Shown piece by piece: positions 2 through 1,311 of a stretch of 1,311 nucleotides of DNA. Each line of letters starts with the position of its first letter. The stretch's first letter is position 1. The translations under genes were made by a program, and so were the position numbers. The stretch is taken from the NCBI RefSeq assembly GCF_003334785.1, contig NZ_QOWV01000063.1. One strand, 5' to 3'. Source of the stretch: Escherichia coli (GTDB taxonomy: Bacteria; Pseudomonadota; Gammaproteobacteria; Enterobacterales; Enterobacteriaceae). Below the pieces are notes generated by a model. It did not search any database, was not told where the DNA came from, and saw nothing but the letters and a program-made list of their open reading frames with translations.

Positions 2-26
2 TGAACCGCCCCGGAAATCCTGGAGA
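2..26. repeat. Left terminal inverted repeat (IRL) of the IS element
   Basis: TGAACCGCCCCGGAAATCCTGGAGA at 2..26 matches the reverse complement of 1287..1311 (TGAACCGCCCCGGGTTTCCTGGAGA) at 22 of 25 positions; the first 13 nt are identical, with mismatches at IR positions 14-16. Confidence 0.85.
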
Positions 27-27
27 C

Positions 28-33
28 TAAACT
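28..33 (+). promoter_or_regulatory. Candidate weak -10 element (TAAACT) of the native orfA promoter, just inside IRL
   Basis: TAAACT at 28..33 resembles TATAAT (TAnnnT), about 22 nt upstream of the orfA ATG. No convincing -35 lies 16-18 bp upstream (ACCGCC/CCGCCC), so a weak promoter is expected. Inference only. Confidence 0.2.
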
Positions 34-41
34 CCCTGAGA

Positions 42-47
42 AAGAGG
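42..47 (+). promoter_or_regulatory. Shine-Dalgarno sequence for orfA
   Basis: AAGAGG at 42..47, 8 nt upstream of the ATG at 56. Confidence 0.6.
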
Positions 48-55
48 TAAACAGG

Positions 56-382
56 ATGACTAAAAATACTCGTTTTTCCCCCGAAGTCCGTCAGCGGGCG
101 ATTCGTATGGTTCTGGAAAGTCAGGATGAATATGACTCACAGTGGGCGGCAATTTGTTCCATTGCCCCAAAGATTGGCTGTACGCCGGAGACTCTGCGTG
201 TCTGGGTTCGCCAGCATGAGCGGGATACCGGGGGCGGTGATGGTGGGCTCACCAGCGCTGAACGTCAGCGTCTGAAAGAGCTGGAACGTGAAAATCGTGA
301 ACTGCGCCGCAGTAACGATATCCTTCGCCAGGCTTCCGCTTATTTTGCGAAGGCGGAGTTCGACCGCCTCTGGAAAAAATGA
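56..382 (+). CDS. IS3-family transposase OrfA (DNA-binding subunit with helix-turn-helix and leucine-zipper region), 108 aa
   Basis: ORF 56..382 preceded by an SD. The translation has an HTH-like segment ([28 protein letters not shown], about nt 134-205) and a heptad leucine pattern (L76, L83, L90, F97 in [25 protein letters not shown], about nt 251-355), as in IS3/IS911 OrfA proteins. It ends WKK-stop directly on an A6 run. Confidence 0.9.
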
Positions 383-1269
383 TGCCACTGCTGGATAAGC
401 TGCGTGAGCAGTACGGGGTCGGACCGGTATGCAGCGAACTGCATATTGCCCCGTCAACGTATTACCATTGTCAGCAACAGCGACATCATCCGGATAAACG
501 CAGTGCCCGTGCGCAGCACGACGACTGGCTGAAGAGAGAGATACAGCGCGTATACGATGAAAATCATCAGGTGTACGGTGTGCGTAAAGTCTGGCGTCAG
601 TTGTTACGGGAAGGAATCAGGGTGGCCAGATGTACAGTGGCACGTCTCATGGCGGTTATGGGACTTGCCGGTGTTCTCCGGGGTAAAAAGGTCCGTACGA
701 CCATCAGCCGGAAAGCCGTTGCCGCAGGCGACCGCGTAAACCGTCAGTTCGTGGCAGAACGACCTGACCAGCTGTGGGTGGCTGATTTTACTTACGTCAG
801 CACATGGCAGGGCTTCGTCTATGTGGCGTTTATCATTGATGTGTTTGCCGGATACATCGTGGGGTGGCGGGTCTCATCGTCTATGGAAACGACATTCGTG
901 CTGGATGCGCTGGAGCAGGCGTTGTGGGCCCGTCGTCCGTCTGGCACCATCCATCACAGCGATAAAGGCTCTCAGTATGTGTCACTGGCCTATACGGAGC
1001 GACTAAAAGAAGCCGGATTACTGGCATCAACAGGGAGTACAGGCGACTCGTATGACAACGCGATGGCTGAGAGCATCAATGGTCTTTACAAAGCGGAGGT
1101 AATACACCGTAAGAGCTGGAAAAACCGTGCAGAAGTGGAACTGGCCACACTAACGTGGGTGGACTGGTATAACAATCGACGATTGCTGGGAAGGCTGGGC
1201 CATACTCCTCCGGCAGAAGCAGAAAAAGCTTATTATGCTTCCATCGGAAACGATGATCTGGCAGCCTGA
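56..1269 (+). CDS. Predicted OrfAB transframe fusion transposase (about 404 aa) produced by -1 frameshifting near 377-379
   Basis: Inferred from the frame relationship of orfA and orfB, the A6 slippery run at the orfA stop, and the fact that the orfB frame is open for 21 codons upstream of its ATG. Fusion length is computed assuming slippage at the last AAA codon. Confidence 0.6.
374..382 (+). other. Putative programmed -1 ribosomal frameshift site (A6 run followed by the in-frame TGA stop, overlapping the orfB ATG)
   Basis: aaaaaatga at 374..382: zero-frame codons AAA(374-376) AAA(377-379) TGA(380-382). The -1 frame reads AAA(376-378) ATG(379-381) and is open back to a stop at 313-315. Producing OrfAB by -1 slippage on A-rich motifs is established for the IS3 family; the exact slip codon here is inferred. 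Confidence 0.65.
379..1269 (+). CDS. IS3-family transposase OrfB (DDE catalytic / integrase-core domain), 296 aa as an independent ORF; mainly expressed as the C-terminal part of the OrfAB fusion
   Basis: ORF 379..1269 in the -1 frame relative to orfA. Catalytic triad candidates: D136 (GAT 784-786, in WVADFTY), D195 (GAT 961-963, in HHSDKGSQY), E231 (GAG 1069-1071, in [13 protein letters not shown]), with K238 seven residues after E. The D-to-E spacing is 36 residues, matching the DD(35)E signature of IS3-family and retroviral integrase catalytic domains. Confidence 0.9.
429..444 (+). other. Short perfect hairpin (6-bp stem ATGCAG/CTGCAT, 4-nt loop CGAA) downstream of the frameshift region
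   Basis: ATGCAG (429-434), loop CGAA (435-438), CTGCAT (439-444) form a perfect inverted repeat. It lies about 50 nt after the slip site, further than typical frameshift stimulators, so its function is uncertain. Confidence 0.2.
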
Positions 1270-1286
1270 GTTCACAGATAAAACAC

Positions 1287-1311
1287 TCTCCAGGAAACCC
1301 GGGGCGGTTCA
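1287..1311. repeat. Right terminal inverted repeat (IRR) of the IS element
   Basis: Reverse complement of 1287..1311 matches 2..26 at 22/25 positions; the element ends in CA-3', as is typical of the IS3 family. Confidence 0.85.

Follow-up and report, generated by a model that had tools for sequence, protein, structure and literature searches.

A complete IS629/IS1203-type insertion sequence in Escherichia coli and its predicted -1 frameshift signal

Here we analyze a stretch of 1311 nt of Escherichia coli DNA from contig NZ_QOWV01000063.1, referred to throughout as the window, in which positions 2-1311 almost certainly constitute a single complete 1310-bp insertion sequence (IS) of the IS3 family and of the IS629/IS1203/IS1203v type. 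The element carries two overlapping genes, orfA and orfB, between terminal inverted repeats, together with an apical loop-internal loop (ALIL) pseudoknot predicted to stimulate the -1 frameshift by which the two gene products would be joined. The element has been described before, and the window adds no novelty to it. All positions are those of the window, and all features lie on its plus strand unless stated otherwise.

It has been reported that IS1203v/IS629 carries orfA and orfB in the 0 and -1 phases and produces OrfAB by frameshifting in the last heptad of the leucine zipper (bioRxiv 10.1101/2023.06.07.543989). The same work places the element in the circle-forming copy-out-paste-in group and finds that the excision of IS629 is stimulated by the IS-excision enhancer, IEE. 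Comparative evidence from the present analysis bears on where the frameshift falls and, as a practical by-product, favors one of two rival OrfAB fusions that have been deposited in public databases.

Organization and identity of the element

The window reaches only one base beyond the element: base 1, a c, lies outside it and is the sole flanking base, and the limit of IS629 in depositor annotations corresponds to base 2. The left terminal inverted repeat (IRL, 2-26) starts with 5'-TG at positions 2-3 and coincides with what depositors have labeled 'inverted repeat from left end of IS629'; the right terminal inverted repeat (IRR, 1287-1311), their 'inverted repeat from right end of IS629', ends with CA-3' at positions 1310-1311. 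The arms are 25 nt long and 88% complementary (22/25), with 13 terminal matches, 3 mismatches and then 9 further matches. A 19-nt sequence taken from the right end was found at the two window ends alone, for an expectation of 0 matches as estimated from 200 shuffles. With a length of 1310 bp, imperfect inverted repeats and TG...CA tips, the element has the size (~ 1.2-1.55 kb) and the ends of the IS3 family. Every base from 2 to 1311 could be assigned to IRL, leader, orfA, orfB, a 17-nt tail or IRR. Thus two statements of an earlier first-pass annotation of this DNA, that it has terminal inverted repeats with TG...CA ends and that the parts of the element account for essentially every base, are borne out, with base 1 alone left as flank.

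The first gene, orfA (56-382), encodes a protein of 108 aa with a helix-turn-helix (HTH) DNA-binding domain and a leucine zipper, and is preceded by a Shine-Dalgarno-like GAGG (44-47), 8 nt 5' of the ATG, which was read from the sequence and to which we ascribe a probable role in initiation. OrfA matches the Pfam domain HTH_Tnp_1 (E = 1.6e-10, at the N-terminus of the OrfAB fusion) and aligns to positions 1-86 of the NCBIfam model NF033516. The heptads of its zipper, read from the translation, are marked by L76, L83, L90 and F97. At least 1000 contigs encode exactly this OrfA protein.

The second gene, orfB (379-1269), encodes 296 aa comprising an HTH_21 domain (Pfam, 8e-18) and an rve DDE catalytic core (3.5e-26), with additional rve_3 and rve_2 tails. 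By itself OrfB scores 316.3 bits against the IS3 equivalog NF033516 (transpos_IS3), for which the cut-off is 160. The catalytic residues lie within the rve domain: D136 (OrfAB D244; 784-786) in the motif WVADFTY, D195 (OrfAB D303; 961-963) in the motif HSDKGSQY, and E231 (OrfAB E339; 1069-1071), 36 residues past D195. A lysine, K238, stands 7 residues past E231, so that the DDE triad is accompanied by the K/R residue at E+7. Relative to orfA (frame 2), orfB (frame 1) is in the -1 frame; the two genes overlap by the sequence ATGA, both are uninterrupted, and the -1 frame is open from position 316. The uninterrupted orfA/orfB pair in a -1 arrangement and the DDE triad, both proposed from the sequence at first pass, are in this way located exactly. 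From this arrangement, orfB would be expected to be expressed mainly as the 404-aa OrfAB fusion, in which 56-346 is joined to 346-1269.

Database comparison identifies the element by name. When the window was compared by megablast with the complete E. coli genomes, many chromosomes and plasmids showed 100% identity across all 1311 nt; a match was present in 4253 of the 5426 complete genomes, where the number of places per genome had a median of 4 and reached at most 53, and the identity at the best place was at least 99% in 1230 records. In a phage collection, Shiga toxin (Stx)-converting phages were likewise found to carry copies that are 100% or 99.9% identical. The first-pass annotation had proposed an intact IS629/IS1203-like element, not a novel system, of a type abundant in E. 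coli O157 and Shigella genomes, and had named full-length near-identity in a BLASTN search as the check; that near-identity was found, and nothing found here counts against the identification.

The name itself is taken from the labels given by depositors and by the Prokaryotic Genome Annotation Pipeline (PGAP), rather than from ISfinder entries. PGAP labels the 100%-identical copies 'IS3-like element IS1203 family transposase' and annotates in them a joined coding sequence (CDS) over the equivalent of 56-1269, marked 'programmed frameshift', as well as an 'AL1L pseudoknot' feature. The depositors of VT1-Sakai and CP-1639 annotated an 'insertion sequence:IS629' with limits equivalent to 2-1311 of the window, and the name IS629 was also given by the depositors of Stx2a_WGPS9 and of pO157 Sakai. 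Against the copies that depositors labeled IS629 (AP000400, AJ304858, AP012535, AB011549), the window is 99.9-100% identical, where more than 95% had been taken as the threshold, and the boundaries are the same.

These comparisons also place the element among its isoforms. The IS629 of O157:H7 Sakai (in the VT1-Sakai prophage and in pO157) and that of phage CP-1639 share with the window the same 1310 bp, 25-bp inverted repeats and orfA/orfB coordinates; the VT1-Sakai copy differs by one mismatch, which is no substantive difference. With IS1203/IS1203v the window shares the PGAP label and the OrfAB junction discussed below, and its identity with the IS1203 prototype (O111:H-) is suggested by these labels together with the work of Rump et al. 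2011 (PMC3271280). In that work, sub-types of IS629 diverge by ~ 4%, IS1203 and IS3411 are treated as IS629 isoforms, and the main O157 sub-type (sub-type I) is nearest to IS1203. The Shigella-type IS629, of the prototype lineage, is alike in organization and ends and shares the ALIL element (120 bits), and differs in sequence: a full-length comparison with the copy on a Shigella flexneri plasmid gives 95.8% identity, 50 mismatches and 2 gap openings, which fits the reported divergence of the sub-types. Judged by its sequence, the isoform in the window is the type that is common in O157:H7 as well as in other E. coli that produce Shiga toxin (STEC).

Two minor features inside or overlapping orfA were considered and set aside. 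The stretch at 223-238 (GGATACCGGGGGCGGT) resembles the inner part of IRR (1293-1308) at 14 of 16 positions and is complementary to positions 5-20 of IRL at 13 of 16. As a functional internal end it was rejected: it has no terminal CA, the 19-nt end does not hit it even with 3 mismatches allowed, and a match to its 8-mer core is expected by chance; its likeness to IRR is probably fortuitous in a GC-rich linker. An antisense open reading frame (ORF) on the minus strand (137-457; 106 aa, TTG start), which overlaps orfA and the frameshift region, is likely spurious and finds no support in the ORF list.

The frameshift signal

The junction between orfA and orfB is covered by a match to the ALIL pseudoknot family RF01497 of Rfam (337-453), which extends over the full length of the model and scores 121.5 bits (gathering score 50; E = 9e-33); it is the same feature that PGAP annotates in identical copies. 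In this type of -1 frameshift stimulator the apical loop of a first stem-loop pairs with the internal loop of a second, 44-104 nt further on (Atkins et al., PMC5009743). In the window, stem-loop 1 (SL1, 352-368) has the form GGCGG/AGUUCGA/CCGCC, and stem-loop 2 (SL2, 414-453) has a 5' internal loop at 419-424; both hairpins follow from the Rfam consensus structure and were also returned by an independent fold. Six bases of the SL1 apical loop, GUUCGA (358-363), are complementary to UCGGAC (419-424) in the SL2 internal loop and could form a loop-loop helix of 6 bp with one G-U pair across a linker of 45 nt between the two stem-loops.

To judge the conservation of this structure, six plasmid-borne relatives of 64-96% identity were compared with the window in an alignment of seven sequences. 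All six have ALIL matches (76-120 bits). The SL1 stem is paired in 97% of cells across the seven, and the loop-loop helix in 97.6% of cells, against 31-45% in slid controls. Within the helix there is a compensatory pair, U-A in 4 sequences and C-G in 3. This conserved pairing favors the ALIL helix, support that is modest given an alignment of seven sequences. A Klebsiella oxytoca plasmid match had no ALIL at the gathering threshold and, as a partial relative, was left out of the comparison. Among the relatives, a 92% identical E. coli copy (L017:1038-1148) has lost 6 nt from the SL1-SL2 linker and one of its SL1 pairs through a G-to-C change, and the ALIL of a 76% identical Klebsiella copy (L011:1036-1152) scores 75.9 bits, with several SL2 positions unpaired. 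In both of these copies the orfA stop is UAA, not UGA, and they may be decaying or divergent.

The slippery motif that this structure would serve is most likely U_UUU at 343-346, where the Phe97 codon (344-346) would re-pair to 343-345 in a programmed -1 shift. It is the sole slippery motif in the orfA frame at a suitable distance from SL1, which begins 5 nt beyond it; in IS3-family elements the stimulatory structures begin 4-10 nt past the shift motif (PMC4066793). In E. coli, U_UU.Y ranks within the three tetramers most prone to shifting, and elements of the IS1 and IS3 families make use of it (PMC4066793). The position of Phe97 is that of the last zipper heptad of OrfA, and it is within the last heptad that Chandler and colleagues locate the frameshift of IS3-family elements (bioRxiv 10.1101/2023.06.07.543989). 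Thus the window contains the components of a frameshift signal, namely the U_UUU motif, the 5-nt spacer and the ALIL pseudoknot; the shifting itself is a prediction. Relatives in more distant hosts keep a motif at the same place. In those from Rhizobium and Sinorhizobium the sequence is GCC/GCU UAU UUC, that is, U_UU.C at the position of U_UUU, and the Rhizobium motif is in frame with the annotated CDS; in that from Acinetobacter it is GCU UUU UUC, which makes up the full heptamer U_UU.U_UU.C.

The alternative with the most to be said for it places the shift further downstream, in the region 374-382, where a run of six A residues (374-379) leads into the ATGA in which the orfA stop overlaps the orfB ATG. 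A -1 shift on this run, as G_AA.A_AA.A just before the orfA UGA, would give the fusion DRLWKK-MMPLL, either in place of the U_UUU junction or alongside it. The tetramer A_AA.A is a known weak shift motif in some IS elements (PMC4066793), the -1 frame is open across the run, and enterobacterial relatives retain the run down to a full-length identity of 76% (a BLAST of 200-700 gives 74.3%). A further point in its favor, and one that counts against the U_UUU site, comes from the databases, where two 404-aa OrfAB fusions are derived from the same DNA and the junction is annotated inconsistently: 158 contigs carry a protein with exactly the A-run junction, under the name 'IS3 family transposase'.

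Several observations make this alternative unlikely. The ALIL geometry, with SL1 starting at 352, calls for a shift site upstream of 352, so the A run and the ATGA overlap, which lie downstream of SL1, do not fit it. SL1 precedes the run and would have been unfolded by the time a ribosome decodes 374-379, and SL2 begins 34 nt past the run, beyond the 4-10 nt of the IS3 family (PMC4066793). The relatives from Rhizobium, Sinorhizobium and Acinetobacter have the ALIL and lack the A run before the orfA stop, and carry U_UU.C or U_UU.U_UU.C upstream. Finally, the other of the two deposited fusions, which has the U_UUU junction, is the 'MULTISPECIES IS1203 family transposase', a PGAP name, found on 394 contigs. 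A minor contribution of the A run alongside U_UUU is possible. Since both junctions are frame-compatible and both have been deposited as proteins, one may also imagine that the two sites, an ALIL-driven U_UUU and the A6 run, are used to produce two OrfAB isoforms with a different 11-residue linker at the end of the zipper, whose multimerization or regulatory behavior might then differ; we consider this rather less likely still, and the U_UUU junction remains favored.

The signal so assigned also separates the element from other well-known members of its family. IS911 and IS3 resemble it in the OrfA/OrfAB logic, the DDE transposase, the TG...CA ends, the 3-bp duplications and the copy-out-paste-in circles. 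They differ in having A_AAA_AAG-type heptamers, with a three-way junction in IS911 and an H-type pseudoknot in IS3, whereas the element in the window appears to use a U_UUU tetramer and an ALIL pseudoknot. IS3411, in which, according to papers citing Mazauric et al. 2008, the ALIL stimulator was characterized, has a stimulator of the same kind; the likeness is drawn from the published description (PMC5009743), which the 45-nt gap between the stem-loops in the window fits.

Transposition and the sites of identical copies

From this anatomy and from published work on the element and its family, a pathway for transposition can be proposed. Translation of orfA from the ATG at 56 would yield a small protein with an HTH and a leucine zipper. 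A minority of ribosomes, stimulated by the pairing of the SL1 apical loop (stem-loop at 352-368) with the SL2 internal loop (414-453), would slip by -1, most likely on U_UUU at 343-346, at Phe97 in the last zipper heptad. The product would be the 404-aa OrfAB transposase, in which the DNA-binding part of OrfA is joined to the DDE (D-D-35-E) core. OrfAB would then bind the 25-bp terminal repeats and cleave at their CA-3' ends, and the element would move by copy-out-paste-in via a circular intermediate, leaving 3-bp target duplications.

The traces expected of such movement were sought at ten copies located at different sites, each identical to the window or one base different. Perfect 3-bp target duplications (ATC, TAC, TTC and AAC) flank four of the ten, at unrelated sites; for the IS3 family, 3-4 bp is usual. 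Copies with duplications include simple insertions that split traG, split a prophage exonuclease gene, or lie between rclC and rclB. That one and the same sequence recurs at many sites, with 3-bp duplications that are still fresh, indicates recent transposition of this exact sequence. At the other six copies no target duplication is present and fragments of unrelated genes meet, a pattern that IS-mediated deletions or recombination between IS copies could account for. The copy in phage Stx2a_WGPS9, for example, joins the N-terminus of an exonuclease to the C-terminus of an integrase, and a copy in a 52-kb plasmid joins traC to a ProQ/FinO gene.

Identical copies reside in Stx prophages, in the transfer regions of F-type plasmids and within another IS, ISEc8. 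Such contexts would also suit a reading of the window as belonging to a bigger unit, either an arm of a composite transposon or part of a prophage-borne rearrangement. We think this improbable; the window ends at the IS boundary with a single flanking base, and the identity of 2-1311 would be the same in either case.

Some caveats attach to the picture of an active element at this locus. The first-pass annotation had held that the copy looks transposition-competent; its frames and inverted repeats were confirmed to be intact, as is the frameshift signal, while competence of the window copy itself is a matter of extrapolation from that intactness and from the identical copies elsewhere. A consensus scan of the window returned 0 sigma-70-like promoter sites, and when an IRR-NNN-IRL circle junction was simulated and scanned under relaxed settings, no site with 8 or more of 12 matches appeared; the native promoters of IS3-family elements are typically weak, and a consensus scan may miss them. 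The one biologically informative question for this particular copy, namely which gene or region it interrupts, concerns a site that lies beyond the window. That the copy is intact and yet inert or domesticated, for example silenced or no more than a substrate on which recombination and deletion act, might be argued from these promoter scans and from the six duplication-less copies, but it is very improbable in view of the integrity of both frames, both inverted repeats, the DDE residues and the frameshift signal, and of the identical, freshly duplicated copies at many sites, with dozens per genome.

Elements of the IS629/IS1203 type matter for the plasticity of STEC genomes, in which they cause gene inactivation and deletions, and they serve in IS-based strain typing.

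One insertion context touches on the excision of the element. In E. coli O157:H7 PV15-279 (L001:757-4311) an identical IS629 lies inside the IS66-family element ISEc8, after tnpA/tnpB and before a truncated transposase. Its neighbor is a gene that bears the annotation 'TOTE conflict system archaeo-eukaryotic primase domain-containing protein'. In light of the literature on ECs1305, a PrimPol-type protein (bioRxiv 10.1101/2023.06.07.543989), this gene may be that of IEE.

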